A stretch of 32,000 bases of DNA from Candidatus Omnitrophota bacterium (lineage in GTDB: Bacteria; Omnitrophota; Gorgyraeia; 2-01-FULL-45-10): assembly GCA_023818895.1 (NCBI GenBank), contig JAMWCX010000001.1, positions 509,789 to 541,788 of the forward strand. Direction: 5' to 3'. The stretch's first letter is position 1. Each line of letters opens with the position of its first letter. The notes under the pieces were generated by a model. That model was not told the origin of the DNA. It searched no databases and was given only the letters and a program-made list of their open reading frames with translations. This document shows positions 6,074 to 28,208 of this stretch, in pieces. Position numbers and translations under genes: made by a program.

Positions 6074-6076
6074 TTT

Positions 6077-7066: not shown

Positions 7067-7088
7067 AGCAAATTTATTCCATATTATT

Positions 7089-12089: not shown

Positions 12090-13339
12090 GATTCTAAAAT
12101 AACTTCGGGTGCTTTTTTGCGTTTGTATTTTGCTTCGAGATCGTCCCTTATCTGAACTATCTGCTCTGAAGTCAGGCCAGACGTCGAGACAAGCGAACGG
12201 TATTCCCCTGGCCTTCCTTTGAACCAAGCATGTTCGTAATCATCCTTAAAATCAATGTCAAAACTTTCTTTATCCTTATAAATCAGAGAACCGGGATAAG
12301 GCGTATAGATAGTAACATCTATGTCATCGAGATCCGCCTCTTCAAGAAAAGCCGTTGTCTCATTAATGGACTGTCTATTCTCGCCCGGCAACCCTATTAT
12401 GAAGAAGCCTTTGACGCGTATCCCAAAATCATGGCACAATTTTATCGCGTCCATGTTCTTTTTTACGGACTCTCCCTTATTAACTATATCGAGTATGCGC
12501 TGGGAGCCGGACTCTATACCCACTCCGACCTCCACACAGCCAGAATCACGCATAGCCGAGATCACTTCCCTGTCCACGGTATCGGATCTTATGAAACACC
12601 TGTATATGATATCGAGTTTTTTAAGAAGCGAGCATATCCCAAGCATCCTCTTTTTATTCACAGTTATCGTATCATCAAAAAACATGAATGCCTTGTAGCC
12701 GTATCTTTTTTTGAGGTCGCTTATCTCATCATAAACGTTCTGTGGGCTGCGCATTCTAAGGGTCTTACCCCAGGCATTGTTCGCGCAGAATTTACAGCCG
12801 AAAGGACAGCCGCGCGAAGTGATAAGCGTAGTGGTCAGCTCGTCATCAAGATAATATTTGTAACTTTTTATATCTATGAGCTCGCGGTCAGGAAATGGGA
12901 TCGCATCGATATCCTTCAGGTATTCGTATCTTAAAATTCTGGCCGTTGACATACCGGCTTCTTTTGCGCGCACGATATCCAGAAACGCCTTCTCTCCCTC
13001 TCCTACAACAACGATATCCGATGGATCGTGGACATCTTCAGGTCTGCCTGATACGTGAGGGCCACCGAATACGTATAAAGCGTTAGCTGTATTATTACGC
13101 TTTTTGAGTTCTGCCGCCACTCTGTCCGCGGTGGGAAATTGCGGTGTATTTGAATAGATGCCTACTATGTCGGCGTCGATTCTTTCCGGCAGAGGCCTTT
13201 CATCATTCATATCTATTAGAGATATATCCTTATAACCGTTATTCTTTAGGTAAGCGCTTAAATAAAGAAGCCCCAACGAAGGAAAGACTTTCTCGCTTAT
13301 CAAAAACTGGGAATTTGGATTTACCAGGAGTATCTTCAT
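12086..13339 (-). CDS. Cobalamin (B12)-binding-domain radical SAM enzyme (class B), paralog B
   Basis: MKILLVNP..., VGIYSNTP, FGGPHVS, VVVGEGE, IPFPDR, TSRGCPFGCKFC, GIESGS, IGLPGEN, YPGS. Clear paralog of the genes on both sides. Confidence 0.9.
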   Translation of the reverse strand: MKILLVNPNSQFLISEKVFPSLGLLYLSAYLKNNGYKDISLIDMNDERPLPERIDADIVGIYSNTPQFPTADRVAAELKKRNNTANALYVFGGPHVSGRPEDVHDPSDIVVVGEGEKAFLDIVRAKEAGMSTARILRYEYLKDIDAIPFPDRELIDIKSYKYYLDDELTTTLITSRGCPFGCKFCANNAWGKTLRMRSPQNVYDEISDLKKRYGYKAFMFFDDTITVNKKRMLGICSLLKKLDIIYRCFIRSDTVDREVISAMRDSGCVEVGVGIESGSQRILDIVNKGESVKKNMDAIKLCHDFGIRVKGFFIIGLPGENRQSINETTAFLEEADLDDIDVTIYTPYPGSLIYKDKESFDIDFKDDYEHAWFKGRPGEYRSLVSTSGLTSEQIVQIRDDLEAKYKRKKAPEVILES

Positions 13340-13349
13340 AACCCAACCA

Positions 13350-14798
13350 CTAAGTTTCCATTTTAAAATAAACTGAATTCGCTACCAGCGAAAGGGCCTT
13401 CTTCGAATTGCCCATAGCGATATTAAAAGCTATCTTTGCGGCGACGGAAGGATTCGTTATGCCAAAATAAAGCATGTCAAATAAAAATACAGGGTTGAAT
13501 AGGTAGTTTTTTACTATATTCAGATTTGTGAATTTGCGCACATACCTCTCAAGTTCCTTTATATCAATTTCCGAAAAAGGAACGGGAGTAGCATCCTGAT
13601 GCCAGTAACGCTCTTCAGAATCCAGAACCCCCTTATTCTTTGCTTCCTCGTAGAGATCGGTACCGGGGAAAGGGGTGGTGAAATAAGCCGCATAAAAATC
13701 GGGACGAATACGCCTAAGAAGTTTTTTGGTCATCTCCAGGTCATCCACGTCTTCGCCAGGATTTCCGACCATTATAGTCGCGACCGTACGCAGACCATAC
13801 TTTCTGCATGCCTCAAATGCTCTGATCGTATCTTCGACTTTAATACCCTTCTTGAGACGGTCCAGAACTTTCTGCGAACCGGATTCGACGCCGAAATCGA
13901 CTTGTATACAGTTTGAGTTCTTTAAGAGCTTGGCATATTCATCGTCGAAGAGGTTGACTCGTGCCTGACAATTCCAAAACATTCTCGGATATTCTTTCTT
14001 TATTCTTTTGCAGAATTCAGCGACAAAATTCCTGTTGACGGTAAAGGTATCATCCATAAGCACAAGGGTTTCTATTCTATAATTCGTCACAAGAAGCGCT
14101 ATCTCGCTAAATATATGATCCATACTTCTGTAACGAACCCTTTTACCGAACATCTTATGAGCCGAGCAGAATGTACACGTAGAAGGGCATCCTCGCGAAG
14201 TCATTATCCATCCGCTTCGCGACCATCTGCCACGTATCTCGCCCCTTCTTGAGGTAAAACGTCTTCGGTCCACAAGGTGGTAAGCGGGTAAGGGCAGCTT
14301 GCTAAGATCCTCTACCGGTCCTCTCGGGCTTGTCTTTATAATCGCGCTTCCCTCTCTGTAATATACACCTAATACCGACTCAGGACTCATATTACCGCGA
14401 ATAACATCAAGAAGCTCAAGTATAGTTTCTTCCCCTTCGTATATAACCACAAAATCGGCTCCCCAACTCATAACCTCTTCAGGCATAAACGACGCATGAA
14501 CTCCACCTACTATTATCCTGCCCCGAAGGGACGACTCCCTAATCTTGCGTATCATACTTCTTACCTCGAAACGCTGGGCGGCCATGCAGGTAATTCCGAT
14601 GATGTCAGGGTCTTCATTGTGTAGATATTCGATTGTGGCATCTATTTGCTTTCCGTAATCTGCCGTCTGTGGCGCCTGAAGCTCTCTGACCTTAACCAAG
14701 CATCCTGCCGCTTCAAGAACACTTGCTATCTGCAACAGCCCGAAAGGAGGACATACAAGCTGCACGGGATTGATAAGAACGCATTTCATACCCATCAT
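13350..14798 (-). CDS. Cobalamin (B12)-binding-domain radical SAM enzyme (class B), paralog C
   Basis: MKCVLINP..., IGITCMAAQ, VGGVHAS, VIYEGEE, TSRGCPSTCTFC, GVESGS, VGNPGE, FPGT. The start is moved from 14837 to ATG at 14798, which gives an ATGA overlap with the GT4 stop (14795-14797) and has GAGGA about 9 nt upstream. Codons 14799-14837 lie inside the upstream gene. Confidence 0.9.
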   Translation of the reverse strand: MMGMKCVLINPVQLVCPPFGLLQIASVLEAAGCLVKVRELQAPQTADYGKQIDATIEYLHNEDPDIIGITCMAAQRFEVRSMIRKIRESSLRGRIIVGGVHASFMPEEVMSWGADFVVIYEGEETILELLDVIRGNMSPESVLGVYYREGSAIIKTSPRGPVEDLSKLPLPAYHLVDRRRFTSRRGEIRGRWSRSGWIMTSRGCPSTCTFCSAHKMFGKRVRYRSMDHIFSEIALLVTNYRIETLVLMDDTFTVNRNFVAEFCKRIKKEYPRMFWNCQARVNLFDDEYAKLLKNSNCIQVDFGVESGSQKVLDRLKKGIKVEDTIRAFEACRKYGLRTVATIMVGNPGEDVDDLEMTKKLLRRIRPDFYAAYFTTPFPGTDLYEEAKNKGVLDSEERYWHQDATPVPFSEIDIKELERYVRKFTNLNIVKNYLFNPVFLFDMLYFGITNPSVAAKIAFNIAMGNSKKALSLVANSVYFKMET

Positions 14799-15985
14799 GA
14801 CACCATCCTCGCAGATATCCCTTTTGCAGCAAGACACTCGTTATACAGCCTCTTGATATCCGAGACCAGTCTTTCTTTTGAGTAGATGTTTGACACAGAA
14901 ACCCTGCCACAAATTCCCATATTCCGACACAAGATCTTATCTTCCATCAGGGAGATAAGTCTTTCGGCAAAGGCAGCAAAATCACCCGACTTAACCAAAA
15001 ATCCGTTCTCCCCATCTCTAATAAGGTCCTCCACTCCGCCGACCGCGGTAGCTACTACAGGCTTGGCAGAGGCCATGGCCTCTATGATAGATACCGGCGT
15101 CCCTTCGTTGAGGGAGGTTAGTCCAACGACGTCGAGACTCTCATAGACCGAAGCCAGCTCGTCTACCCAGCCGGTAAAGATAATGTCTTGCTGGATCCCT
15201 ATCTGGGCAGCATATTCTTTGATAGAGAACTCCGACTCGCCATTACCTACCACTATAAATTTAACATTCGCATCAGGCCTCTTTTGCCGAAAATATTTAG
15301 CCGCGTCCAAAAACATCTTATGGTTCTTTATGGGAACAAGCCTTCCGACTATTCCGACAAGAAACGTTTCATCAGAGAAGCCAAGATGCTTCCTAAAAGA
15401 GCCTTTAGCGATTTCGCAATTAAGAAACCTGTCTAGTTCAAAACCAAGCGGTATAACGGCGGTTTTTGAACTTTTCACTACCCCAAGGTTCGCCACTATA
15501 TCGCCCTTGATCCTGTCGCTTACCGTAATAACCTTATCCGTAAAAAGCCCCAAGAACCTCTCGATCATAAGAAAGAGGCGCGCTTTTAATGGGCTAAAGT
15601 AGCCGTCAAATATATGTCCGTGGAAAGTATGAACCTTCACTGGAACTCTGGCTAATATAGCAGCAATTCGACCCAGCGTGCCAGCCTTTGCGGTATGGGT
15701 ATGGACAATGTCCGGCTTCTCTTTTTTTATTATCGAATAAAGTCCTATCAGCGCTTTCATATCTTTCGCAGGAGATATATCCCTTATAAGATCCTCCACG
15801 ACTATAGGATAAACTCCTTTTTCTCTAGCCAGATAAGACATGTCGCCTTCTGAGACACTTATTCTGCCGCAAACCAACACATCCTTATACGAGCCGTTCT
15901 TGTTAAGCTCGCTGGAAAGAAGCACCGTATGTATCGCCGGCCCGCCGATATTAAGCCTTGTTATTATCCTTAGGACTTTAACCAT
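14795..15985 (-). CDS. GT-B fold glycosyltransferase, family 4 (group 1)
   Basis: N-terminal RLNIGGPAIH, and C-terminal EGTPVSIIEAMASAKPVVATAVGGVEDLIRDGENGFLV containing the EX7E motif typical of GT4 retaining transferases. AAAGG lies 6-7 nt upstream of the ATG at 15985. Confidence 0.9.
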   Translation of the reverse strand: MVKVLRIITRLNIGGPAIHTVLLSSELNKNGSYKDVLVCGRISVSEGDMSYLAREKGVYPIVVEDLIRDISPAKDMKALIGLYSIIKKEKPDIVHTHTAKAGTLGRIAAILARVPVKVHTFHGHIFDGYFSPLKARLFLMIERFLGLFTDKVITVSDRIKGDIVANLGVVKSSKTAVIPLGFELDRFLNCEIAKGSFRKHLGFSDETFLVGIVGRLVPIKNHKMFLDAAKYFRQKRPDANVKFIVVGNGESEFSIKEYAAQIGIQQDIIFTGWVDELASVYESLDVVGLTSLNEGTPVSIIEAMASAKPVVATAVGGVEDLIRDGENGFLVKSGDFAAFAERLISLMEDKILCRNMGICGRVSVSNIYSKERLVSDIKRLYNECLAAKGISARMVS

Positions 15986-16793: not shown

Positions 16794-18641
16794 TTATAAA
16801 AAATACTTAAATTTGTAATAGACTATTGCCGCGTACTCATGGAGTATGCCTTTTATTTGCTCAAGCTTAACAGTATGACCCTTTGAATAGTAGGCGCTCT
16901 GTTCAACAGGAACAAAATAAAACTTCACATCTGATAGGTATCTATCGCAAAGCAATTTGACCCTCAGCATGTGGTAAGGAGAGCTTACCAGAATAATGCT
17001 TTTCCACCCACTCGACCGTGCCATAGCGGCCAGGCTTTTTATCATGTCGTAAGTATTAGAAGGTGAGTCATCCACCATGACATCTCTCTCGCTGACGCCG
17101 ATCGACACCGAAAGCGCCTTCATAACATGAGCCTCTCTCATTATATATTTGTAGCCGCTTATATAAATAATGCGCCCAGCCAGACCTTCCTTGTATAGCT
17201 TTACCGCGGTATATACCCTCTCCTCGTATCCCTGGCCCGCTTTGCCAGATTCACCTGTTCCAGCCCCGAGAACTACTATCGCATCGGATATCTCCGGCTC
17301 GCTTTTGACCGCAAGAGGGCTGGCTACCCACCATATAAGCGGTGTATGGAAAAGAGCGAAATACAGATATGCAATTGCAACACACGCGATGGCAAATCGC
17401 TTTCCGGTACGCCTGTAGATATTGGCCAGATTGGACCGCCACGATACTTCCTTGATCCTCCTCTTCTCTTCAAGAATTGATTCGATAAGAGATGACATTT
17501 CCTCCAGCTTTGAAGCCCACGAATTCTTCTTAGCAGCCTCAATAGCGCGGGCCGTTTCATTTGGATCGCGCGGGGAGCTAAGCGCGGTTTTCAACTCGTC
17601 GCAAAACCCCTGCGCGCTAGATGATACGCTCACGATATTACCATTTTCCCTGTTAAACTTCACTACCTCAGGTAGATTCGTAGAAACAACCCTCTTCCCT
17701 ACCGACAAATACTCGTTAAGCTTAGTGGGATACACGTTCCTCGTATACTCAGTGATCCTGTACGGTATGAGCGCAACATCGAATTCCTTGACATACATCG
17801 GCAATTCTTCGGTGGGCTTATATCCGAGAAAAGTTATATTGGGATGTTTTTTTAGTTTTTCCACATCCGTCTGTATCGGACCACAGAATACAAAAGATAC
17901 GTCGCTCAGGGCGTCAGCAACCATCTCGACGAGTTCTAGATCTATCCATTTATGTATACCTCCTATGTATCCGGCGATCGGCCTTTTTATATTGACCATG
18001 TCTGCCGGAACAGGGACCATTTGGTTGAAGGCTTTCTGGAAGTTCTCTATGCTTACGCCAAACGGAAAGTAGTGGACCCTGTCGTTATATTGCCTACAAT
18101 ATCGCGCCAGTTCATCGCTTGTCACGAATACGATATCGGACCTTTTGATCAGGCGTTCTTCGCTTTTCCTTATCTTCTCCGCACCCTTAGAGCTCGCCTT
18201 GAAGGAATCTATGCAATAGTATATAAGCGCCTTGGGCTCGATCTTTTCTATTATATCGAGACTGAGAGCTGTCGGCAGGAAGGTCCAGACTATCGGCTCG
18301 GAGAATCCGACCGATTTGAGCCACCTGAACAGGACCGACGAGATAAGCTTCTTGTTAATAAACCTGGCTATCCTCAAGTATGGGAACGGCAGAACGATCG
18401 GTGAGTAAACGTAAAGACCGTCTTCTATTTTTCGGATGCCGCGCACTCCCTTTCTCCAATTAGCTATTCGCTTTCGTATCCTTCCGAAATCGCTAACCCT
18501 GGGAGCTCGAACACCGGTATTCTCTATAAAAAGTACCCTGTTACCATTCCTGGCAAGGCGCGTCATTATTTCTTGATGGCCTTGCCAGATAAAGTCCCAG
18601 TCTATGCTTGAGATGCATATAATATCTTCGTTTTTGAGCAC
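16794..18641 (-). CDS. Fusion protein: N-terminal GT-B glycosyltransferase (TuaH-like GT4), one TM segment, C-terminal DUF218 (YdcF/SanA/ElyC-like) domain
   Basis: The N-terminus IICISSIDWDFIWQGHQEIMTRLARNGNRVLFIE is typical of TuaH-like GT-B enzymes. A hydrophobic segment spans residues about 415-441 (FAIACVAIAYLYFALFHTPLIWWVA). The C-terminus DAIVVLGAGTG...RIIYISG...EAHVM...PSNTYDM...ILVSSPYHMLRV follows the DUF218 consensus. The start is GTG at 18641, with GGGGG 4 nt upstream. Confidence 0.8.
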   Translation of the reverse strand: MLKNEDIICISSIDWDFIWQGHQEIMTRLARNGNRVLFIENTGVRAPRVSDFGRIRKRIANWRKGVRGIRKIEDGLYVYSPIVLPFPYLRIARFINKKLISSVLFRWLKSVGFSEPIVWTFLPTALSLDIIEKIEPKALIYYCIDSFKASSKGAEKIRKSEERLIKRSDIVFVTSDELARYCRQYNDRVHYFPFGVSIENFQKAFNQMVPVPADMVNIKRPIAGYIGGIHKWIDLELVEMVADALSDVSFVFCGPIQTDVEKLKKHPNITFLGYKPTEELPMYVKEFDVALIPYRITEYTRNVYPTKLNEYLSVGKRVVSTNLPEVVKFNRENGNIVSVSSSAQGFCDELKTALSSPRDPNETARAIEAAKKNSWASKLEEMSSLIESILEEKRRIKEVSWRSNLANIYRRTGKRFAIACVAIAYLYFALFHTPLIWWVASPLAVKSEPEISDAIVVLGAGTGESGKAGQGYEERVYTAVKLYKEGLAGRIIYISGYKYIMREAHVMKALSVSIGVSERDVMVDDSPSNTYDMIKSLAAMARSSGWKSIILVSSPYHMLRVKLLCDRYLSDVKFYFVPVEQSAYYSKGHTVKLEQIKGILHEYAAIVYYKFKYFL

Positions 18642-18723: not shown

Positions 18724-19617
18724 TTATCGCTTTAACAGAGCGGCTTTGAATCCAGCAAGATTCCCTAATGCCCTGTAGATATAACGTTTATCAAAACCGA
18801 ACAAACCTTTTAGTATATTATTCAGCAATAAGCCAAAAAGAGCCCAAAGGCATAATGCCGGTGACAAAGGCGGATTCTTCCTCACAAAATAAAGTCTGTT
18901 TAACACTTCCATCTTACCGAGCGGAGCGCTGAAAGATATTTCTTCTAGCGAGTTCATGTGCCTTACCTTCGCGTCTGCAACAAGGTATATCCGATACTTT
19001 CGCCCCACACGATAACCGAAATCTACCTCTTCATAACGGGCATAGCCACTAAACCATTCATCAAACATGAACTCATTGAATATCGAGGATCTCCAAGTCA
19101 TAGCGCATCCGACAACCCATTCGACCTGTGATGTCTCATCAATCGGCGGTATCCTGCTCTGAAAACCCGACTTCAGGATCCTGCCAGGTTTATCCGCATT
19201 GACCATGAAAATCTTCTGCAATACCGTAGGACGTCCTTCTGAGACATTAGTGATATTGAATCCAGCTCCGCCCACATCGGGCGCCGCCCCTTCCCAGAAC
19301 TTCATCATATTCTTAAGACATCCATCATCAAGAATGACATCATCATCGAAAAAAGCGATAATGGACACATCTTTAAATATGCGCCTGATGCCGACATTTC
19401 GCTGGACGGTCAGCGATGCCGGCAATTGTCTCATATACTCGATTTTCATGCCAGGAAAATCCCTTACTAGCCGTTCTACCGGCAAGACACCTCCGTCAAC
19501 AACGATAATCCGCGCCGGTTTATAGTCCTGGTCCTTAATGGAAGCAAGTATATTTGCCAGTCCTTCCACCCTATCTTTGGTAGGAATAATTATTCCGAGA
19601 CTAGTCCCTGAGCTCAT
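18724..19617 (-). CDS. Family 2 glycosyltransferase
   Basis: LGIIIPTKDRVEGL, RIIVVDGG, FFDDDV (DxD), and a C-terminal amphipathic/hydrophobic tail. This is typical non-processive GT2 architecture. Confidence 0.85.
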   Translation of the reverse strand: MSSGTSLGIIIPTKDRVEGLANILASIKDQDYKPARIIVVDGGVLPVERLVRDFPGMKIEYMRQLPASLTVQRNVGIRRIFKDVSIIAFFDDDVILDDGCLKNMMKFWEGAAPDVGGAGFNITNVSEGRPTVLQKIFMVNADKPGRILKSGFQSRIPPIDETSQVEWVVGCAMTWRSSIFNEFMFDEWFSGYARYEEVDFGYRVGRKYRIYLVADAKVRHMNSLEEISFSAPLGKMEVLNRLYFVRKNPPLSPALCLWALFGLLLNNILKGLFGFDKRYIYRALGNLAGFKAALLKR

Positions 19618-19621
19618 ATTC

Positions 19622-20725
19622 TCACCTTCCTAACACCGCAGAGATCTTCGCCATGGCATCCTTGGCGATCAGAGAAGGGACGTGTCTTATGTTGAAAAGA
19701 TATCCACAGGAGCATCCCGGACATCTTTTATAGAACATGTTCTTCTTTGCCTTCTTGTATATAGCCGATTTTTTTATTTCGCCAAAACGCGTTGCCATGA
19801 GATTGCCGAATATACCCATTGAAAGGCAACCGCCATAAACGCTGCCATATGGATCGACGTATATCCTGTCCTGAGAAACCACGCACGGTATATTCTTCTG
19901 CAATGGGTCCCTGAAATACTTCGATATGTAGTCGAGGGCCGGATAATTCAGGATAAGCGAACCCGGCTTGCGCGCCAATTCCCGCCTCGCATATTCAAGG
20001 ACATCCCCCAGGCCTTTAAAACCGGCCTCGTCTTCTATCCAGAAATTCTCCCTGTTTTCTTTAAGATTAAATATCGCTGAAGTCTTGTCGAGAAGGCATA
20101 TTGTGACCGGAAGCCCCATTGAATCAGCAAGCTCTTTAACCTCTCTGAACTTATTAATGTTGTCCCGCATTAGCGTAAAATTTATATAGGCGTCTATGCC
20201 GTGCCGCGCCCTGGCTTTCGCGACGGCCTTCGCCGCGTCGGCCAATTTCTGAAACGAACCGGCAACCCCCCTTATATTATCGTAATCCTGCCCGACAGCA
20301 TCCATAGATAGTGCCATGGATCTCAGGCCGGCCTCCATTAACTCGTCGAGGAGTCTATTTGTCAGGAGGATACCGTTTGTTGTCATCCCGACTGTCATCC
20401 CTTTTTCATTTGCGTAATCAACAAGCTTTACGAGATCCGCGCGCAGCAGCGGCTCGCCGCCGGTAAAATGAATATTTCTAAAACCGTTGCGTCGCAGATC
20501 GTCGATTATCCTTTTCCATTCTTCCGTCGACAATTCCCGCCGCGCCTTCTCCCTCCACTGCCCGCACATAACGCAGCGCAGGTTGCAGCGGTTAGTTAGC
20601 ATTATGTTGCAGGAGGTCGGCGAGATCTCGAATTTGCGATACATAACGGGAATGGCACAGAGGACACCCGTCTTCGCTATGTTAGGTAGGTAATTAAATA
20701 TCAATTTACGCAGCCTTTTATGCAT
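19622..20725 (-). CDS. Radical SAM enzyme with C-terminal SPASM/twitch-like cysteine cluster
   Basis: LTNRCNLRCVMC (CxxxCxxC), HFTGGEPLL. C-terminal CVVSQDRIYVDPYGSVYGGC (C-x12-G-x5-C) and CPGCSCG. No B12-binding domain. Confidence 0.85.
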   Translation of the reverse strand: MHKRLRKLIFNYLPNIAKTGVLCAIPVMYRKFEISPTSCNIMLTNRCNLRCVMCGQWREKARRELSTEEWKRIIDDLRRNGFRNIHFTGGEPLLRADLVKLVDYANEKGMTVGMTTNGILLTNRLLDELMEAGLRSMALSMDAVGQDYDNIRGVAGSFQKLADAAKAVAKARARHGIDAYINFTLMRDNINKFREVKELADSMGLPVTICLLDKTSAIFNLKENRENFWIEDEAGFKGLGDVLEYARRELARKPGSLILNYPALDYISKYFRDPLQKNIPCVVSQDRIYVDPYGSVYGGCLSMGIFGNLMATRFGEIKKSAIYKKAKKNMFYKRCPGCSCGYLFNIRHVPSLIAKDAMAKISAVLGR

Positions 20726-20728
20726 AAG

Positions 20729-22603
20729 CTAATATAAAACCTCATAGATAACAAATTTCTCGTTCGGATGTCTCTGGTAGCGCCTGCCGGCACTGTTGAA
20801 TGCTTTAATCAGACACGTTTTTCTTCCCGGCAAAAGTTTCTCAAGAGACGATATCCCCCCTTTTTCTTCAACTTCCTCTTTGAAATAGATGTACCGCGGA
20901 GAATGGCTTTCTACTAACCGCCGCATTTCATTCGCCTTGTCTAATCCATTCCAATTAAGTACTTTTATATTCTTCTGCTCAGGTGGAATATAAACACGAC
21001 TATGATGTTCTGCGATAACACTTGCTTCTTTAGGAATAGTATCACGCCACCATTTTGCAAGCTCAAAAACAACATCTTCATTTTGATAAAAGCGATAAAG
21101 ACGGGCTTGCGCTAGCAATGAACCGTTAATTGCGATATCGCCCAAAAGCACCATAATACAGAAGGCCAGTAATCCGTTCTTTAATAACAAGGGAAAGGGT
21201 GAATATTTATTAAATAAAAGAACACCTTGTACTGCAAGTATTGAAGCTGCCGCAAAAAACGGAAGAACATTATGCTGTTCAAACCGGCCTTGAAACATAA
21301 GATTAGCAAACAATGGCGACGCAAATATTAAAAGTGTTGCCCTTTTGCAAAAGTTTTTTTTATCAGCAACGAAACTCTTGCGCCAATACACCAGTTCTAC
21401 ACAAATGTAAAATAGACCGAGAAACAATATTGCGGGATCAAAGACCAATATCTTATCCGCCAGTTTTTCAAAAAAGTACCCCAACCACCCCTTCGCTGCT
21501 ATGCCGGCTATGGCATGATCTCTCTGTATGGCTATAGGTCCAAATTGACCATAGATGTTTATCAGGTGCCGCGGATTAACGATCCACTTTAATCCGAATA
21601 TTGCCACGAAACCGGCAAATAACCCGACGGAAAACAGTCCGTAGGAATTGATCTCGTTGATCCGGTCAAATATTTTTTTGATGCGCCCATGCAAGCGGCC
21701 TGTCATTGCATACAGAGCCGCCGATATAACTATCAAGATAGCGCCGATTATGATTAGATATATAATGGCAGGAATTTGTACTATACTTCCCCACAATCCG
21801 TATTGCGCATACCAAGTCAAGCCGGTAGATTTTCTGGTATAAAATATGAGAACTAGGAGAGGGAAGAAGGCGATGATAAGCCCGCATATCCCTGGCAGGA
21901 CCCATGACATTTTACCAACACGCTCTATTATCATATTGTGCCCCTTGCCGCATCGTTTCGAAAGATATAGCCCGACGATAACGACCGGCACCAAAAATAG
22001 ACCTGCAAATTTTACGATGAAGGCAAGAGCTGCCATCGCCGAGGCAACTACGATATTTTTAAGCGAAGGCGAATCTATAAGACGGAGAGTATAGTCAAGA
22101 CCAATCATCATGAAAAGAAGAACGAGCCCCTCGGGCTTGAGGCTATTTGATAGGTAGTCAAAGGCTGGTCTTGTCGCCAGAAGAGCAACCGGCAATACCT
22201 GCTGCCAACCAGAACCGAAATGACGCTCAATAAGTCGCCATAGCGCAATGAGTGACAATACCCACGCTACCAGATGGATGAACCGCAGAATCAATACGAA
22301 GTGGCCCGGTGCAAGATCGATAAATTTCGAAAGAATGCTACGACCGAATGCTGCCAGATAAACCATCTCGAGCCCATAATCGAAATCCCACTGGAAGCTG
22401 TCACGCTTAATGCCGCTATAATAATACCATATCTCATCCATCAGTCCGCCTTCATCGGCATTGAAATACACGATCATATTCGGATCTTGTATATTCTGCC
22501 CGATTGTCGGCATTACCAATATAAGACTTCCTATGCAGAGTATAATAAGTACCGCATAGTTTGGCAGGGATAGTAGGCCGCCGTTCCTAATTTCTATATT
22601 CAT
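20729..22603 (-). CDS. Polytopic membrane protein, GT-C-like glycosyltransferase (ArnT/PMT_2-like) with C-terminal soluble domain
   Basis: 624 aa. TM1 (YAVLIILCIGSLILV) is followed by an acidic loop FNADEGGLMDEIWYYY, then more than 10 hydrophobic helices and a hydrophilic C-terminal domain of about 130 aa. The family call rests on architecture plus the acidic first-loop motif only. Confidence 0.55.
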   Translation of the reverse strand: MNIEIRNGGLLSLPNYAVLIILCIGSLILVMPTIGQNIQDPNMIVYFNADEGGLMDEIWYYYSGIKRDSFQWDFDYGLEMVYLAAFGRSILSKFIDLAPGHFVLILRFIHLVAWVLSLIALWRLIERHFGSGWQQVLPVALLATRPAFDYLSNSLKPEGLVLLFMMIGLDYTLRLIDSPSLKNIVVASAMAALAFIVKFAGLFLVPVVIVGLYLSKRCGKGHNMIIERVGKMSWVLPGICGLIIAFFPLLVLIFYTRKSTGLTWYAQYGLWGSIVQIPAIIYLIIIGAILIVISAALYAMTGRLHGRIKKIFDRINEINSYGLFSVGLFAGFVAIFGLKWIVNPRHLINIYGQFGPIAIQRDHAIAGIAAKGWLGYFFEKLADKILVFDPAILFLGLFYICVELVYWRKSFVADKKNFCKRATLLIFASPLFANLMFQGRFEQHNVLPFFAAASILAVQGVLLFNKYSPFPLLLKNGLLAFCIMVLLGDIAINGSLLAQARLYRFYQNEDVVFELAKWWRDTIPKEASVIAEHHSRVYIPPEQKNIKVLNWNGLDKANEMRRLVESHSPRYIYFKEEVEEKGGISSLEKLLPGRKTCLIKAFNSAGRRYQRHPNEKFVIYEVLY

Positions 22604-24126
22604 ACCCGTATTTCATTAGCGCGCTTTTCTTTGATATTGAAAATGCTGTTGAAAAGGGCTTTTGCCGATATAAAAGCGATTCTCCATATAACAAGGCATA
22701 AGAAAGCCGCGAGTGAAAAGAGGATATCGGGCTTTACATACCATCTCTTGGGGAGAGATAAGACTCCACCACCTGATAGCGGTGATTTAAATAGAGTTTT
22801 ATATAGGATTTTAGGCCGAAGGTAAAACGCTATGTTTGCAAATATCGTGTCAAATATAAGATCCACCCCTCTCGTACCCTCCGGAACATAAGGAAGATCG
22901 TCGCCTTGGAGGTAATACTGATTGCAACAGTTCGTCCAGTTCTCATGAATATGAAGACTGTTCTCTTCTTTCGCTATTCGGTAAAGCTTTGTTCCGGGAT
23001 ATGGGATAGCTATATTGAACCTTGCTCCATCGAGCGGCAAATCGCACATCAGCTTAAGCGTATCGTACCGCTCTTTACGTGTTTCAGTCGGAAGACCGAA
23101 AATAAGAGACGCGTCCGTCAATATGCCCATCTCATGGCACATTTTTATCGCCTTGATGTTGTCTTCTACAAGTTCTTTTTTATCAATAACCTTCATCAGT
23201 CGCTCTGACCCCGTTTCAACACCAAATGCCATCGATATGAAATTACAGGCTTTCAGTCTCTCAAGCATCTCATATGTTACCTCCTTGCCCCGCGTTGTAC
23301 CTATAAAAGCAACCTTCTTATGATAGCCGCTGGCAATAATCCCATCGATAAGCTCGTATAGCCTTTTCTTGTTGATAGTAAGACTATCATCTATAAACCA
23401 TATTTTCTTCTGCCCATAAAAATCAACGAGCGTTTTAATATCATTCACCACCCTATTTACGGAGAAAAATCTGTAGGCGTTACCGGATATTGCGCGCTGC
23501 GAGCAAAAGATGCAGTCAAAAGGGCAACCCCGCGAACTTATGATGGTGCCGAAATCAGCATATCGGTCGAGGTGTCCCTCAAACAAGTCATACGGAAATG
23601 GCGGTATATCATCCAGGTCTTCCAGGAGCTCACGATCGGGATTATGAAATACATCGGAACCCTTTTTGTAGGATATCCCTTTTATACCGCTGTAATCTCT
23701 ATCTTGTTTAATGCAGTCGTATACCTCACTGAGCGTCACTTCGCCTTCTTTCCTGACAACTATGTCAGCCTGGGACTTTCTGAGCATATCTTCCGGCAAG
23801 ACCGTTGCATGAACACCACCCAGAACAATTGTAGCTTTGGGGTCTATCGCTTTGATCTCTTCGGTAAGCCTTATTACCCTTTTCGTCGTCGCCGTGAGAT
23901 TAGGGATGCCTACTATCTTAGGATGACCGAGTTTACCAAGTTCATCTTCGAGTATCTGCCAAGAGGCCTCCTTAATCTGCTCGTCCAAGATCCTGATAGA
24001 AGCACCATTCTTGGCGCGCAAATAACCAGAGAGGAAGCCTATGGATGTAGGGAAGCATGCATAGGTGAATTTTTTGACGATCTTCGGCTGAGAAATCTTG
24101 TCCAGAACTGGATTTATGAATAACAT
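22600..24126 (-). CDS. Cobalamin (B12)-binding-domain radical SAM enzyme (class B), paralog D, with C-terminal hydrophobic helix
   Basis: MLFINP..., VGIPNLTATT, LGGVHAT, VVRKEGE, IPPFPYD, SSRGCPFDCIFC, GVETGS, FGLPTET, YPGT. C-terminal FSLAAFLCLVIWRIAFISAKALF (22651-22719). The stop overlaps the next gene's start as ATGA (22600-22603). Confidence 0.9.
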   Translation of the reverse strand: MLFINPVLDKISQPKIVKKFTYACFPTSIGFLSGYLRAKNGASIRILDEQIKEASWQILEDELGKLGHPKIVGIPNLTATTKRVIRLTEEIKAIDPKATIVLGGVHATVLPEDMLRKSQADIVVRKEGEVTLSEVYDCIKQDRDYSGIKGISYKKGSDVFHNPDRELLEDLDDIPPFPYDLFEGHLDRYADFGTIISSRGCPFDCIFCSQRAISGNAYRFFSVNRVVNDIKTLVDFYGQKKIWFIDDSLTINKKRLYELIDGIIASGYHKKVAFIGTTRGKEVTYEMLERLKACNFISMAFGVETGSERLMKVIDKKELVEDNIKAIKMCHEMGILTDASLIFGLPTETRKERYDTLKLMCDLPLDGARFNIAIPYPGTKLYRIAKEENSLHIHENWTNCCNQYYLQGDDLPYVPEGTRGVDLIFDTIFANIAFYLRPKILYKTLFKSPLSGGGVLSLPKRWYVKPDILFSLAAFLCLVIWRIAFISAKALFNSIFNIKEKRANEIRV

Positions 24127-24150
24127 TTTTCTCTCATTAAATTCTTATAT

Positions 24151-24906
24151 CTAGGTTTTTCTTGCCACGGCGAGTAAAGAACTTCCGATAAAAGGATGCG
24201 ATATAACAGTGTTTTCGAATCTCATAATAGCTAAAAATATGTCGTTGACAAATGGAAATACCGGCTGAAAACCGCATTTTATCGTTCGGGCATTTCCCTT
24301 ACAAAACAGCATTATGTACTTGCGCGCCAGAAGAAACGGAACTAGGGACGCTCCCCAGTAAACAGCTCTTTCAAGTTTAAAGCCAGCAAGCTCAAGCTCC
24401 TTCCTTAAACCCGCTATGGTGTAACGCTTTATATGCCCCGCAACTCTATCATAGCGGCTATACATGAAATTAAAGGCGGGAAGGTTTATAATAACTTTTC
24501 CTCCGCTCTTCATGTGAAAATTCACTGATTTGAGAAAGGAGACAGGATCCTTTATATGCTCCAAAACGTCCAATAAAAGCACTGTTTGGAAATATTCGCG
24601 AAATTCCGCGTTTCTCTGATGGATATTATAGAAGTAAAGATTCCCTCTCCCCTTTGGCATATTTTCTAGAGCGTGCTTATTAAGATCGCAGGCCGCAACG
24701 GAACAATTATAGTATTCTTCAATCTGGCTTCTGGCCACACCATTACCGGAACCTATATCCAGTGTATTCCCCCACCCATACCTTGAAGGAATGATTTTTT
24801 TAATAACATTAAAGCGCCACTTCATCCAGAAATGGTCTATGGTGGCATATTCATACCATTCGTCTGCCATAGAATATTCGGAAGGAGGACTGAGATAATT
24901 TATCAT
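24151..24906 (-). CDS. Class I SAM-dependent methyltransferase
   Basis: TLDIGSGNGV (motif I), ACDLN, VLLLDVLEHIKDP, MKSGGKVIINLP. This is the typical Methyltransf_11/23-like pattern common in O-antigen loci. Confidence 0.85.
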   Translation of the reverse strand: MINYLSPPSEYSMADEWYEYATIDHFWMKWRFNVIKKIIPSRYGWGNTLDIGSGNGVARSQIEEYYNCSVAACDLNKHALENMPKGRGNLYFYNIHQRNAEFREYFQTVLLLDVLEHIKDPVSFLKSVNFHMKSGGKVIINLPAFNFMYSRYDRVAGHIKRYTIAGLRKELELAGFKLERAVYWGASLVPFLLARKYIMLFCKGNARTIKCGFQPVFPFVNDIFLAIMRFENTVISHPFIGSSLLAVARKT

Positions 24907-24923
24907 ATCGCCTCGTCGTAATT

Positions 24924-25787
24924 TTAAACTGCCTTATAATTCACTAGCGAAATACCGGAAGTAGCTATAGCGTCTTTCACAAGCGGGCTGAGAAGAGATG
25001 CATGTTCCCGTTCCCAGTCACATGGCCACCCGGCCAGCTTCTTCAAATGCCCGTATTTTTTCTTTATTACCTTATTATCGACACCCGGATGCACATTGAT
25101 CTCCGTTATGCCGGGCTTTATTTTTTCAATAACTCTTATTAAGTATTCCGGCCCGATCTTACCGCTTTTAAAAAATCCAACAAGAAAATCAGGGGTCCTG
25201 AATCCTGATTTTCTGAACGGGCAAGAGGCCATGACAAAAACCGAAAAGGCAACCTTTTTAAGATCCTCAAAGCTGAAATCAAACCACGGTATGTTCAGCC
25301 CTCTTATCCTGGTTATACCGAATTTGTTCAGCACCGGCTTTATGGCCTTAAATACTGGCCGGAGGGCATGTATATGCTGATGGCTATCTACGTGTGTTGG
25401 CAATATGCCACTTTCCACAACCCTTGTCAGCTGTTCTTCGCACTCTATAGCTATATGCTCCATGTCAATCAGTCCCGCGCATATTTTTGAAAATAATTCC
25501 ATATGGCTTCTGAATAACATGCCGTCTTTGCCCACTATCGTTTTTATCTTTTTTGGATCTGCCAGCGGCCGTTCTCCGACAAGTGTAAGATGAATACCCA
25601 CACCAAGCCCCCTGTTTCTTGCGGCAATCTTTACAGCGTGGTCAAAACTATCACCGCAAGCTACAAGAGAGGCATTTGTAATAACACCCTTGCAGTATCC
25701 TATCTCGATGGATTCGTTTATAGATTCATGCAAGCCAAAATCATCAGCTGATATTATAAATCTTTTTTTTCGCTCTTCTTGCGGCAT
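24924..25787 (-). CDS. YdjC/ChbG-family carbohydrate deacetylase (NaxD/LgmC/HpnK-like)
   Basis: FIISADDFGLHESINESI (the DDFG catalytic region of the YdjC family), GVGIHLTL, HVDSHQHIH (metal-binding His cluster). About 287 aa, typical for the family. Confidence 0.85.
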   Translation of the reverse strand: MPQEERKKRFIISADDFGLHESINESIEIGYCKGVITNASLVACGDSFDHAVKIAARNRGLGVGIHLTLVGERPLADPKKIKTIVGKDGMLFRSHMELFSKICAGLIDMEHIAIECEEQLTRVVESGILPTHVDSHQHIHALRPVFKAIKPVLNKFGITRIRGLNIPWFDFSFEDLKKVAFSVFVMASCPFRKSGFRTPDFLVGFFKSGKIGPEYLIRVIEKIKPGITEINVHPGVDNKVIKKKYGHLKKLAGWPCDWEREHASLLSPLVKDAIATSGISLVNYKAV

Positions 25788-25789
25788 AC

Positions 25790-26752
25790 CTATATATTTT
25801 CTTTCGCCGAATCTTCTTTTACTATAAATATGGGGCGCTTTTTTGTCTGCTCATAAATTCGTCCGACGTATTCCCCCAGTACTCCTACGGCCATAAGTTG
25901 GACGCTGCCCAAAAAACAGACTGCCATTATAAGATCTGTCCATCCGGGCGGCATCGGTATGCGCACTATTCTCAGAATTTTCAGGATCCATATGCCAATA
26001 ACTATCATAAGGTAGAGCGAGGAAAAGAAAAATATTATAAGCGAGAAGAGCATTATAAGGTGGAGCGGATACCTGCCGAATGAGAATATGCCGTCGAGCG
26101 CCAGATGATATAGACTCCTGTAAGAAAATTTCGGCTTTCCGGCATGTCGCTTTTCTACATTGTACGGTATCCCCTCCTGTCTGAAGCCGAGCCACCTTAC
26201 CTGACCTCTAAGGAACTTATGGCACTCCGGCATATCTAGGATAAGTTTCAATATTTTTTTGTCGATCAGCCTGAAATCGGACTGGCCGAACTCAAGAGAA
26301 AGCCCTGAGATCTTCGATATGAACCAGTACGAAGCCCTTACTATAAAACCCTTTATCGGGTCGATGTTTGCATCCTGTTTAGTGGTATAAACCACGTCCA
26401 CCCCCTCACGCCAGCGCTTCACCATCTCCGGGATCAGCGAAGGCGGATGCTGCAGGTCGGCATCCATCGTTATTATGGCGTCACCTTCTGCCTTACCCAG
26501 CCCGGCAAAAAGCGCGACCTGGTGGCCGAAGTTCCGCGAAAAAGAGAGATACCGAACATTGGGATCTGCTGCGCGAACCTTTTTTACGACGTCGAGAGAT
26601 CCATCCGAACTGCCATCGTCAACAAAGATCATTTCGTAGTCAAGATTAGCCTGATGACATACCTCGCGGACTTGGTTATAAAGCTCTTCTATATTATCTT
26701 TTTCGTTAAATACCGGAAATACTATAGAAATTCTTGTTTTTTTCTCTGTCAT
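25790..26752 (-). CDS. Polyprenyl-phosphate glycosyltransferase, GT2 (ArnC/GtrB/FlmF2-like) with two C-terminal TM helices
   Basis: ISIVFPVFNEKDNIEEL, FVDDGSSDGS, TMDADLQHPP. Two C-terminal helices end in GEYVGRIYEQTKKRPIFIV, the characteristic ArnC/GtrB tail. The track start (26872) overlaps the upstream gene. I prefer ATG at 26752 (MTEKKTRISIVFPVFNE), with AAAGG upstream. ATG at 26782 is an alternative. Confidence 0.9.
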   Translation of the reverse strand: MTEKKTRISIVFPVFNEKDNIEELYNQVREVCHQANLDYEMIFVDDGSSDGSLDVVKKVRAADPNVRYLSFSRNFGHQVALFAGLGKAEGDAIITMDADLQHPPSLIPEMVKRWREGVDVVYTTKQDANIDPIKGFIVRASYWFISKISGLSLEFGQSDFRLIDKKILKLILDMPECHKFLRGQVRWLGFRQEGIPYNVEKRHAGKPKFSYRSLYHLALDGIFSFGRYPLHLIMLFSLIIFFFSSLYLMIVIGIWILKILRIVRIPMPPGWTDLIMAVCFLGSVQLMAVGVLGEYVGRIYEQTKKRPIFIVKEDSAKENI

Positions 26753-26795: not shown

Positions 26796-28208
26796 TTACG
26801 ATTCTGAAAATAGCCGTCGATAATCAACAAGGGAGTGCGCCAACCCGAACCTTGTGCGTATTTCTGATGCATCTACCGTAACGCGGAAAGATTGCAGCAG
26901 CTCATTCGATAATTTATCATACGCAACATGCTTCACGCCGCTGATACCATCTAGGTCAACATAGGAAGAATAGTCGGGGTGTTTCAACTGCACAACCGGA
27001 CGGCCCATCAAAAGCGCCTCTTCCATCACCGTCGTGCTCATCCCGATAACAATTTTAGCACCGGCTAGGTCTGAATATAAAGGATCGCCATTTGACACGG
27101 TAATCATACCGCTAACCTTGCCGCGATCTACCCATCTCTTCAACTTTCTGTTAAGATCCGCATGTGAATGCATCCTTAATCGGAGCCGCACCGGCAAACC
27201 ACCTTTATTAACTAACTGGCGCAATGAACTTACAACGGCCTCGTTATCAAAACGCGCGAGTCCAGAAACAAACAGATAATATCCGTTATCCTGATCGACC
27301 GGTCCAGGCTCAACAGACTTCCATTCTTTATACCGGCAACTGCACCCCATCAGAAACGTGGTATTTGGAAAATACGGCGCCAAAAGATCAACAACTCTCC
27401 TCTCAAATGCATAAAAAACATCGGGTAACATCAGACCCTGTGCTATCTCTTCCGGATAGGGAAAATACCATCGCTTATCACTGGAAACGGACGCGTGCTG
27501 AATGGTGTATGTCCTTATCTTGCGCTTAGATGCAAAACGCCAGACAACTCTCGCATAAGAATGCATCTCGTGGATACACCCGATCTTTTTTATGGGATAC
27601 TGTTCGGTAATCTCGGATAATATGCGCTCGAGATAAAGATTCCTAAGCCATTGCATGCTGAAAACCCAGGAGCACCATTCGAGTAAAATCAATATTTTAC
27701 TGTAAAGTTTTCCGGGTATTTTAAAAAATGCTTCAACGCCGCAGCACATCATAATACCCATTATCCTCAGGGCGCAGAATGCTGATATCGGCACAAACGG
27801 CTTAGCATTAGCACCACAGTGTTGAACTGGGCCGATAACAAGTAAGGCGTCATCATCAGCGGTATCCACATACTTTGTTTTATAGCTGCATTTTCCTGAA
27901 GGATATCCGCATTCAGAGGTGATTATCAATATGCTGTCCTTTATCTTCCCGTACAATCCATACCCCAATCTTGGCGGATGAAATACTCGTAAAAATCCTT
28001 TTAGCATACCTGCTCCTGATAAAAGCAGCAGCTGTAATAATAATTTGAAAGGATGCCGCTGCCTATAGCTACGGTGCCACAGATTGGACGCATCGGGACT
28101 CCTAGTACTTACACTGGATGAAAATACCAACGACACAACGTCTCTAGGCACCAAAGTGGCCACAGTAGCAACAAATCTAGCAGCCAATTGCTCAATATCA
28201 ACTTTCAT
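26796..28208 (-). CDS. Hypothetical 470-aa protein; the C-terminal region weakly resembles the nucleotide-sugar-binding half of GT-B enzymes
   Basis: Long uninterrupted ORF, co-directional and tightly packed. Only AKIVIGMSTTVMEEALLMGRPVVQL looks familiar (GxST...EA...G.PVV, as in GT-B / capsule-synthesis proteins). The N-terminal two thirds match nothing I recognise. Confidence 0.55.
   Translation of the reverse strand: MKVDIEQLAARFVATVATLVPRDVVSLVFSSSVSTRSPDASNLWHRSYRQRHPFKLLLQLLLLSGAGMLKGFLRVFHPPRLGYGLYGKIKDSILIITSECGYPSGKCSYKTKYVDTADDDALLVIGPVQHCGANAKPFVPISAFCALRIMGIMMCCGVEAFFKIPGKLYSKILILLEWCSWVFSMQWLRNLYLERILSEITEQYPIKKIGCIHEMHSYARVVWRFASKRKIRTYTIQHASVSSDKRWYFPYPEEIAQGLMLPDVFYAFERRVVDLLAPYFPNTTFLMGCSCRYKEWKSVEPGPVDQDNGYYLFVSGLARFDNEAVVSSLRQLVNKGGLPVRLRLRMHSHADLNRKLKRWVDRGKVSGMITVSNGDPLYSDLAGAKIVIGMSTTVMEEALLMGRPVVQLKHPDYSSYVDLDGISGVKHVAYDKLSNELLQSFRVTVDASEIRTRFGLAHSLVDYRRLFSES

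Follow-up and report, generated by a model that had tools for sequence, protein, structure and literature searches.

A predicted cobalamin-binding radical SAM enzyme in a putative carrier-level sugar-tailoring module of an Omnitrophota surface-glycan cluster

Introduction

Decoration of envelope glycans and lipid A with sugars carried on polyprenyl phosphate (Pren-P) affects resistance to phages and antibiotics as well as immune evasion. To our knowledge, the carried sugar is at most de-acylated in the known systems of this type (Gtr, Arn, Flm/NaxD, Gac, CsbB/YfhO). Five consecutive genes in a stretch of DNA of 32,000 nucleotides from a Candidatus Omnitrophota bacterium (assembly GCA_023818895.1, contig JAMWCX010000001.1, positions 509,789 to 541,788; this whole stretch is referred to below as the window, and positions are counted from its first letter) raise the question whether such a sugar may undergo further chemistry while still bound to its carrier. 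The genes encode a family 2 glycosyltransferase (GT2; gene A), a YdjC-family deacetylase (gene B), a class I methyltransferase dependent on S-adenosylmethionine (SAM; gene C), a B12-binding radical SAM enzyme (gene D), and a polytopic glycosyltransferase of the GT-C fold (gene E). A preliminary description of the locus, made from the sequence alone, proposed that the block makes a lipid-linked hexosamine, and that this hexosamine is remodelled by the radical SAM enzyme and the methyltransferase before the GT-C protein transfers it in the periplasm. Our analysis makes it fairly probable that the five genes form a module for tailoring a sugar on its carrier and then transferring it.

Results

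The block consists of five minus-strand open reading frames (ORFs) at positions 20729-26752, which match those described previously in coordinates and in the families of their products. Their packing is dense and operon-like: genes A and B are separated by 2 nt, B and C by 17 nt, and C and D by 24 nt, while D and E overlap in an ATGA. The shortest gap and the overlap had both been claimed before, and the overlap was read directly from the sequence. The domain E-values of the five genes are far beyond chance. The product of gene D is 100% identical to a protein of a metagenome-assembled genome (MAG) named "Candidatus Omnitrophica bacterium" at NCBI, and the same genes are carried by assembly GCA_023818765.1; an exact-sequence look-up of the gene B product gave no record.

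Gene D (22600-24126, minus strand) encodes a 508 aa protein that matches both the B12-binding domain (PF02310, E 4.8e-14, 52.7 bits) and the radical SAM domain (PF04055, E 2.7e-22, 80.2 bits). Its CxxxCxxC motif, which binds the [4Fe-4S] cluster and SAM (C201, C205, and C208 in 'GCPFDCIFC'; 23503-23526, minus strand), is invariant in 35 family members, and so are the GG (residues 103-104) and EGE (127-129) motifs of the cobalamin-binding domain, which have been described for this class of enzymes (PMC9204698). The AlphaFold2 (AF2) model of the protein (predicted local distance difference test, pLDDT, 90.7) is matched in Foldseek by TsrM, QCMT, TokK, OxsB, and CysS with E-values of 1e-24 to 1e-20, and the highest TM-scores, 0.69/0.77, are those of AprD4 (6fd2). 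By sequence, the closest solved relatives are QCMT (62 bits), OxsB (59), TokK (52), and AprD4 (50). These similarities and the model identify D as a class B radical SAM enzyme, predicted to bind cobalamin. Among the NCBIfam models, ApyD (175 bits), BchE (171), and HpnJ (167) score nearly equally and far under their cut-offs.

The relationship of D to HpnJ is of special interest, since the preliminary description drew a parallel to the hopanoid tailoring enzymes HpnI, HpnK, and HpnJ. HpnJ shares with D only the core (~28% identity over residues 68-391; 91 bits over residues ~72-393), and HpnJ identity for D was rejected (TIGR03471, 166.7 bits vs. 577.6). In a rough neighbour-joining distance tree of limited sampling (65 B12-binding radical SAM sequences, 100 bootstraps), the D family is monophyletic in 98 replicates and groups with HpnJ or with BchE in none. 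By its sequence relationships, D stands as the founding member of a distinct family of B12 radical SAM enzymes. In one search 918 proteins matched D at E<=1e-20, of which the best 120 are all about 500 aa long and at least 42% identical to it. An exhaustive search of representatives clustered at 50% identity yielded ~25-30 that align along the full length of D, out of 5,997 B12 radical SAM relatives (E<=1e-30). The family has members in Omnitrophota and Elusimicrobia, in a Rhodospirillaceae MAG of the Alphaproteobacteria, and in other metagenomic lineages that are unclassified. One relative (P0185) contains an intein, and four proteins of ~2,000-2,300 residues (P0200, P0210, P0235, and P0243) each comprise four separate stretches that match D-like B12 radical SAM modules.

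The C-terminal part of D carries a signature that is conserved in the whole family: W.N..Q.Y...PY.P is followed by S-GG.V.S.P..WY (the family motif S-GGGV-SLPK-WY ahead of the helix of D) and then by a helix. In the AF2 model of D this helix comprises residues 466-496 (22639-22731, minus strand) and spans the hydrophobic stretch at 22651-22719 that had been noticed before. Family-wide, the helix is basic and amphipathic, with on average 5.4 Lys and Arg vs. 0.7 Asp and Glu in 32 residues; its hydrophobic moment is 0.50 and its mean hydrophobicity 0.25. In protein P0182 it is followed by a SAM-dependent methyltransferase domain, and in other fusion proteins a carbohydrate esterase family 4 (CE4) domain can follow it; the free-standing homolog of the latter, encoded in locus L098, has neither a predicted transmembrane (TM) segment nor an obvious signal peptide. 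Because of the basic, amphipathic character of the helix and the domains that follow it in the fusion proteins, we rejected a TM segment as its family-wide reading. It is probably an in-plane anchor by which a cytoplasmic enzyme is kept at the surface of the membrane, where a sugar linked to polyprenyl phosphate would sit. The hydrophobic helix noticed earlier is thus real, but probably lies in the plane of the membrane and does not span it.

Gene A (25790-26752, minus strand) encodes a 320 aa protein with a glycosyltransferase domain (PF00535, E 2.7e-31; 109 bits vs. a cut-off of 23.3). The ATG at 26752 ('MTEKK') was taken as its start, since the longer ORF, which extends to 26872, would overlap the upstream gene. 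Both MDADLQHPP, with the DxD motif, and GEYVGRIYEQTKKRP are present, and three hydrophobic segments within residues 222-289 make up a C-terminal TM hairpin. In full-length matches, residues 7-313 align to residues 27-328 of GtrB sll0501 (5ekp), the best PDB match, with 243 bits, and to residues 9-312 of the ArnC structures 9bhc and 8vxh with 141 bits, whereas the processive synthases PgaC and NodC match the domain only in its first ~100-115 residues (ORF positions ~40-154; 32-58 bits). The full-length matches, which include the TM hairpin, speak against a processive synthase and support the ArnC/GtrB type named in the preliminary description. The best NCBIfam model is PgfS (270 bits vs. a cut-off of 500), and the ArnC model scores 153 bits vs. 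529, both below the equivalog cut-offs. We also rejected HpnI identity (TIGR03472, 19.4 bits vs. 310), and two HpnI sequences from Burkholderiales plasmids gave no phmmer match to gene A at E<=1. Judging from these alignments, the product of gene A is a polyprenyl-phosphate GT2 of the GtrB/ArnC/DPMS type, without assignment to the ArnC or PgfS equivalog.

The product of gene B (24924-25787, minus strand; 287 aa) is a YdjC-family carbohydrate deacetylase (PF04794, E 8.9e-53; 180 bits vs. a cut-off of 29.7) with neither signal peptide nor TM segment. Its motifs DDFG (residues 15-18), GIHLTL (64-69), and HVDSHQHIH (132-140) align to PDB structures 2i5i and 7vi8, so the catalytic Asp and His residues of the deacetylase postulated earlier are intact; the catalytic and metal-binding motifs are also conserved in the orthologs from loci L086, L090, and L002. 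The best NCBIfam model of gene B is HpnK (TIGR03473), but its score of 148.4 bits lies under the curated cut-off of 232.6, and HpnK identity was rejected. HpnK of Mycetohabitans matches gene B with 76 bits.

Gene C (24151-24906, minus strand) encodes, as described previously, a class I SAM-dependent methyltransferase, 251 aa in size (Methyltransf_23, E 3.3e-13; Methyltransf_11 and Methyltransf_12 match as well). A search of PDB sequences returned only uncharacterised methyltransferases and weak matches to phosphoethanolamine N-methyltransferase or UbiG.

Gene E (20729-22603, minus strand) encodes a polytopic glycosyltransferase of 624 aa with ~10 predicted TM segments and a soluble, beta-rich C-terminal domain. 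It matches PMT_2 (E 1.8e-08; 35.2 bits vs. a cut-off of 26.1), and its AF2 model is confident (pLDDT 90.3; predicted template modelling score, pTM, 0.90). All Foldseek matches of this model with a probability of at least 0.87 are GT-C enzymes (ALG12, ALG9, DPY19, STT3, PglB, ArnT, and Pmt4), the first chain of another kind appearing at rank 22 with a probability of 0.14; the GT-C-like nature previously ascribed to E is thus supported by both domain and fold. ArnT is found at rank 11 (E 1.8e-3), which indicates that E is not specifically ArnT-like. A sequence search of the PDB with gene E gave no match. In the first extracytoplasmic loop, the motif 'YFNADEGG' contains the pair D50-E51 (22451-22456, minus strand), of which D50 is invariant and E51 is present in at least 90% of 42 homologs. 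In the model, this pair is placed at the start of loop helix 49-63, which follows the first TM segment (residues 13-34). Judging from where GT-C enzymes in general have their catalytic Asp, D50-E51 is a candidate catalytic acid pair.

To see which of these genes accompany members of the D family, 13 non-redundant neighbourhoods (D 44-100% identical), the window among them, were examined; 12 of them were available as DNA, and the loci are not phylogenetically independent. For the GtrB-like GT2 genes, 48 loci anchored on distant B12 radical SAM paralogs served as controls. The controls came from a scan of genome contigs with the full-length D alignment, in which mostly distant paralogs of 30-44% identity were found among the matches listed. 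A scan of metagenome contigs with the C-terminal family motif yielded 8 loci, and 2 of these had useful flanks.

All 12 DNA loci encode a polytopic membrane protein (at least 6 predicted TM segments) no more than 2.4 kb from D, its gene often overlapping D or lying a few nucleotides apart from it. Most of these proteins belong to PMT_2, YfhO, or DUF2079 in Pfam, and in four loci they are unannotated; YfhO-type GT-Cs are the partners of D in L087 and L104. Pairwise phmmer comparisons revealed no similarity among them except between E and its ortholog in L086, so their GT-C nature rests on Pfam in some cases and only on TM topology in others. A class I methyltransferase gene lies within about 5 kb of D in 12 of the 13 loci, frequently abutting it, and a GtrB-like GT2 gene lies within 10 kb in 9 of 12 loci vs. 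2 of 48 controls (Fisher p 7e-7, the kinship of loci being ignored). In locus L002 of an Elusimicrobia MAG, where D is 56% identical, the same five families occur together in the order D, GT-C, methyltransferase, YdjC, and GT2. The grouping of GT2, YdjC, and radical SAM genes therefore recurs across phyla, and the different gene order argues against simple inherited synteny.

In several proteins the partners of D are fused to it. A methyltransferase domain precedes D in P0166 and P0196 and follows it in P0182, and fusions of D with a CE4 domain are found in P0116, P0164, and P0294. A more distant B12 radical SAM protein, P0204 (33% identical), is fused to an LPG_synthase_TM membrane domain.

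A recognisable deacetylase is encoded near D in 7 of the 13 loci. In four of them, i.e., the window, the Omnitrophota-like contigs L086 and L090, and L002, it is a YdjC protein. In the remaining three, which represent a separate subclade of D, an unrelated CE4/DUF2334 enzyme takes the slot of YdjC: in L098 a free-standing CE4 gene lies exactly between GT2 and D, and in L088 (P0116, 866 aa) and L006 a CE4/DUF2334 domain is fused to the C-terminus of D. The CE4 protein of L098 is homologous to the DUF2334 domain fused in L088 (E 3e-45). We therefore rejected the idea of three unrelated deacetylase families in favour of two types. Such displacement of one enzyme by a non-homologous one at an equivalent position gives good grounds for including deacetylation in the pathway of the lineages concerned.

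LPG_synthase_TM (HpnL-like) proteins are encoded beside D genes in L087 (15616-16599), L098 (13977-14885), and L092 (3086-3586), and beside hpnI and hpnJ on Burkholderiales plasmids (L100, 8488-9540; L101, 7015-8076, the latter also with hpnK). In both settings they might flip lipid head groups that bear an amine.

The entire 32-kb window is one minus-strand surface-glycan cluster, with five B12-binding and two SPASM-type radical SAM genes, at least three methyltransferase genes, and two GT-C genes. It further encodes GT1, GT2, and GT4 enzymes, DegT, a dehydratase, and an initiating transferase of the WecA type. Scanning the window for Rfam families and tRNA genes gave no match, and none of its genes encodes squalene-hopene cyclase (SHC), HpnH, or HpnG; neither an ArnA/ArnB pair beside the block nor ArnE/F was found in it.

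Directly after the block, starting 3 nt downstream of E, lies gene F (19622-20725, minus strand), which encodes a radical SAM/SPASM-type enzyme of 367 aa (PF04055, E 8.9e-30; the SPASM match is weak). It is syntenic in L086 and found directly after D in L087, and is a possible accessory to the module. It pairs with gene G (18724-19617, minus strand), which encodes a second GT2 of 297 aa (PF00535, E 5.2e-12). The F-G pair (18724-20725) occurs in the same order in L001 and L086 (13361-15373 in L086), and similar pairs, a short GT2 beside a SPASM-type radical SAM enzyme, were seen near D-like genes in L008, L009, and L014.

On the other side of the block, directly upstream of the GT2 gene, a 470 aa protein without a Pfam domain is encoded (26796-28208, minus strand). 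The protein is only faintly similar to TIGR04326 (LIC13510-type surface carbohydrate biosynthesis protein). The counterpart position in L086 is occupied by a Pfam-less gene for 496 aa (4072-5562), and L002 gives a weak match. Downstream of gene G, at 16794-18641 (minus strand), lies the gene for a 615 aa fusion protein in which one TM helix and a DUF218 domain are joined to a TuaH-like GT1 domain; both this gene and the adjoining DUF4330 gene are conserved in L086. The region 4304-14837 (minus strand) is possibly a second carrier-level decoration module. It encodes a GT-C protein (589 aa, PMT_2/PMT), a 346 aa GT2 with C-terminal TM helices, a short GT2 of 254 aa, two class I methyltransferases, a DegT aminotransferase, and three B12-binding radical SAM enzymes in tandem. 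In this region, the ORF at 10668-12227 overlaps the upstream radical SAM ORF by 142 nt (12086-12227), and its true start is probably the ATG at 12089 ('MKILLINP'), which abolishes the overlap. Downstream of the last gene, that of the WecA-type transferase, positions 1-1097 lack ORFs of more than 72 aa on both strands and have an AT skew of +0.16, with no Rfam or tRNA match.

Discussion

The families, motifs, and arrangement of the five genes suggest a pathway in which the product of gene A would transfer N-acetylhexosamine (HexNAc) from a nucleotide sugar onto polyprenyl (undecaprenyl) phosphate at the cytoplasmic face of the membrane, and the deacetylase B would strip the N-acetyl group, giving Pren-P-linked hexosamine (Pren-P-HexN). 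D, anchored at the membrane surface, and C would then, presumably after the deacetylation, modify the carrier-bound aminosugar. As to their chemistry, our guess is that D would carry out radical C-methylation of an unactivated sugar carbon and that C would add an N- or O-methyl group. The modified carrier-linked sugar would be flipped across the membrane, and E would transfer it to a periplasmic acceptor; the likeliest one is the glycan that the other genes of the 32-kb cluster make, lipid A or a protein being less likely. The recurrence of all five families in L002, the displacement of YdjC by CE4 enzymes, the fusion proteins, and the enrichment of GtrB-like GT2 genes near D argue for the remodelling of a lipid-linked hexosamine that the preliminary description had envisaged, and we hold with reasonable, if measured, confidence that D and C act on a polyprenyl-phosphate-linked sugar destined for the GT-C enzyme. 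Given such a substrate, C-methylation by D is slightly favoured, because D keeps the GG and EGE motifs and most annotated class B members appear to be methylases (PMC9204698).

Several observations weigh against the proposed pathway. The scores of methylase, cyclase, and contractase models on D are nearly equal and the folds match alike, so that neither sequence nor fold singles out one chemistry for D. The number of neighbourhoods is small, only 13, and they are related by descent. In three of the 12 DNA loci, the only GT2s are short ones (237-254 aa) without the C-terminal TM hairpin. The methyltransferase domains fused to D are not orthologs of gene C but belong to another subfamily, which suggests a need for companion methylation rather than for one specific protein. 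Besides D, four B12 radical SAM genes lie in the window, as do several methyltransferase genes, so some co-location is to be expected in such clusters. A recognisable deacetylase is missing from 6 of the 13 loci, and for this reason we place it outside the core as an accessory: the deacetylase is optional and replaceable, and the conserved core is composed of GT2, methyltransferase, D, and GT-C. Finally, no flippase gene (GtrA_DPMS_TM, ArnE/F/EmrE-like, or LPG_synthase_TM) was found among the genes of the window, and the packing near the block leaves no space for a small unlisted ORF. Related loci have flippase candidates, namely a GtrA domain in L097 and L098 and LPG_synthase_TM in L087 and L098, and a dedicated linked flippase is also missing from many known Pren-P-sugar systems.

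Within the same general scheme, and nested in it rather than excluding it, D may have another chemistry, such as radical dehydration or deoxygenation, epimerisation, or ring contraction, with C as the sole source of methyl groups. We give this variant a minor but appreciable chance. AprD4, the protein with the top TM-scores to D, acts next to a free sugar amine; BchE and HpnJ, two of the three top NCBIfam models, are both non-methylases; the obligatory companion methyltransferase, sometimes fused to D, would make a second methylase partly redundant; and the order of deacetylase and B12 radical SAM enzyme parallels that of HpnK and HpnJ. However, the conserved GG and EGE motifs and the prevalence of methylases in the class speak for methylation, a conserved AprD3-like reductase partner was not seen in the loci compared, and a carbocycle on phosphate, the outcome of ring contraction, would be a poor donor for a GT-C enzyme; the absence of a D-HpnJ clade from all 100 bootstrap trees also stands against this variant. 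Somewhat less probable, and in our opinion unlikely, is that D and C tailor a nucleotide sugar, the growing polymer, or the acceptor, their adjacency to the other genes reflecting only the dense packing of glycan genes. The abundance of radical SAM, methyltransferase, and GT-C genes in the window fits such co-location, and so do the loci with short GT2s only and L097, where the GtrB-like GT2 gene lies 5.5 kb off. On the other hand, D is coupled to, or directly beside, GT-C-like proteins of differing families in many loci across phyla, GtrB-like GT2 genes are far more frequent near D than near its paralogs, and fusions of D with deacetylases exist, while it is difficult to see why an enzyme that acts on a soluble nucleotide sugar should have a conserved membrane-anchoring helix.

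The hopanoid precedent raised by the preliminary description holds as a parallel of logic and fails as a statement of membership. In a pathway of the HpnI-HpnK-HpnJ type, or another one acting on lipid head groups, the GT2 would add its sugar straight to a membrane lipid, after which YdjC would remove the acetyl group and D would contract the ring to an aminocyclitol. It is true that HpnK is the best NCBIfam match of B, that HpnJ is in the top three of D and has D as its own best match in a small reference set (91 bits), and that LPG_synthase_TM genes are found beside both D and hpnIJK genes. The scores of all three Hpn models are, however, far under their cut-offs (19 vs. 310 bits for HpnI, 148 vs. 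233 for HpnK, and 167 vs. 578 for HpnJ), HpnI does not match A while GtrB and ArnC match it at full length, and D never forms a clade with HpnJ. D is moreover translationally coupled to a GT-C enzyme that requires a polyprenyl-phosphate donor. A published survey of genomes detected domains of HpnI and HpnJ only where SHC and HpnH were also present (PMC12324291), and the window has neither of these genes nor HpnG. A hopanoid-type pathway is hence very improbable.

Taking tailoring on the polyprenyl-phosphate carrier as the preferred reading, one can ask whether it extends to the relatives of D. Chances appear a little better than even that the D family is a widespread and hitherto unrecognised class of cobalamin radical SAM enzymes acting on polyprenyl-phosphate-linked (amino)sugars. 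Radical tailoring may then proceed on the carrier at the membrane surface, with an obligatory class I methyltransferase partner and often with a deacetylase. If this is true, B12 radical SAM chemistry would gain a new class of substrates, and the diversification of bacterial surface glycans a new layer. The module also gives a genetically defined hypothesis for a large cobalamin radical SAM family without an assigned function. It further predicts an uncharacterised modified aminosugar on the surfaces of Omnitrophota and Elusimicrobia, which are uncultured and whose envelopes are little studied. The parallel with the action of HpnK followed by HpnJ offers a comparison for the still uncharacterised reaction of HpnJ.

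How the module relates to known systems can be judged from its skeleton. The two-enzyme core, a Pren-P-sugar GT2 and a GT-C, is the same as in GtrA/GtrB/GtrV, GacI/GacL, CsbB/YfhO, and PgfS/PgfM. In these systems, the sugar is transferred unmodified, whereas the D module keeps two to three tailoring enzymes between loading and transfer. In the FlmF2-NaxD-FlmK system of Francisella and the LgmA-LgmC-LgmB system of Bordetella, the GT2 makes undecaprenyl-phosphate (Und-P)-HexNAc, whose acetyl group is removed on the carrier by an enzyme of the YdjC family before a GT-C transfers the free hexosamine in the periplasm. The same logic and all three families are present in the window; the radical SAM enzyme and the methyltransferase are not part of Flm/NaxD and Lgm. 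The acceptor of the latter is lipid A, while the window cluster resembles an O-antigen or exopolysaccharide locus. In the ArnC-ArnD-ArnE/F-ArnT pathway, which modifies lipid A with Ara4N, the aminosugar is put on Und-P in N-acylated form by a GT2, a deacylase of the CE4 type then frees its amine on the carrier, and a GT-C transfers the sugar. Where the D module uses a CE4/DUF2334 enzyme (L098, L088, and L006), it copies the ArnD-type solution. The Arn pathway differs by having neither a radical SAM nor a methyltransferase step, and gene A scores below the ArnC equivalog cut-off.

Two other groups of systems resemble the module in its radical SAM step. HpnI-HpnK-HpnJ(-HpnL) has a GT2, a YdjC deacetylase, and a B12 radical SAM enzyme in the same order, the last of them acting on glucosamine once its amine is free, but the GT2 of the module belongs to another subfamily, its predicted carrier is polyprenyl phosphate and not a hopanoid, and a GT-C follows. 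Among the enzymes of antibiotic pathways, GenD1 is paired with the class I N-methyltransferase GenN on the garosamine ring of gentamicin, and MoeK5 of moenomycin is thought to act on a lipid-phosphate-linked sugar. GenD1, GenK, and MoeK5 are likewise class B radical SAM enzymes that act on a carbon of an (amino)sugar, and are likened to D here by chemistry and not by sequence. They have been listed as single C-methylases (PMC9204698). While these three serve the synthesis of antibiotics, D is set in envelope glycan decoration coupled to a GT-C. Our literature search, in which subscription journals were thinly covered, found no report of a Pren-P-sugar GT2 and GT-C accompanied by a conserved B12 radical SAM enzyme and methyltransferase. 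Hence, the skeleton of GT2, deacetylase, and GT-C is already known from several decoration systems, and the new part of the module would be a conserved radical SAM and methyltransferase step on the carried sugar, which would add new chemistry to Pren-P-sugar decoration.

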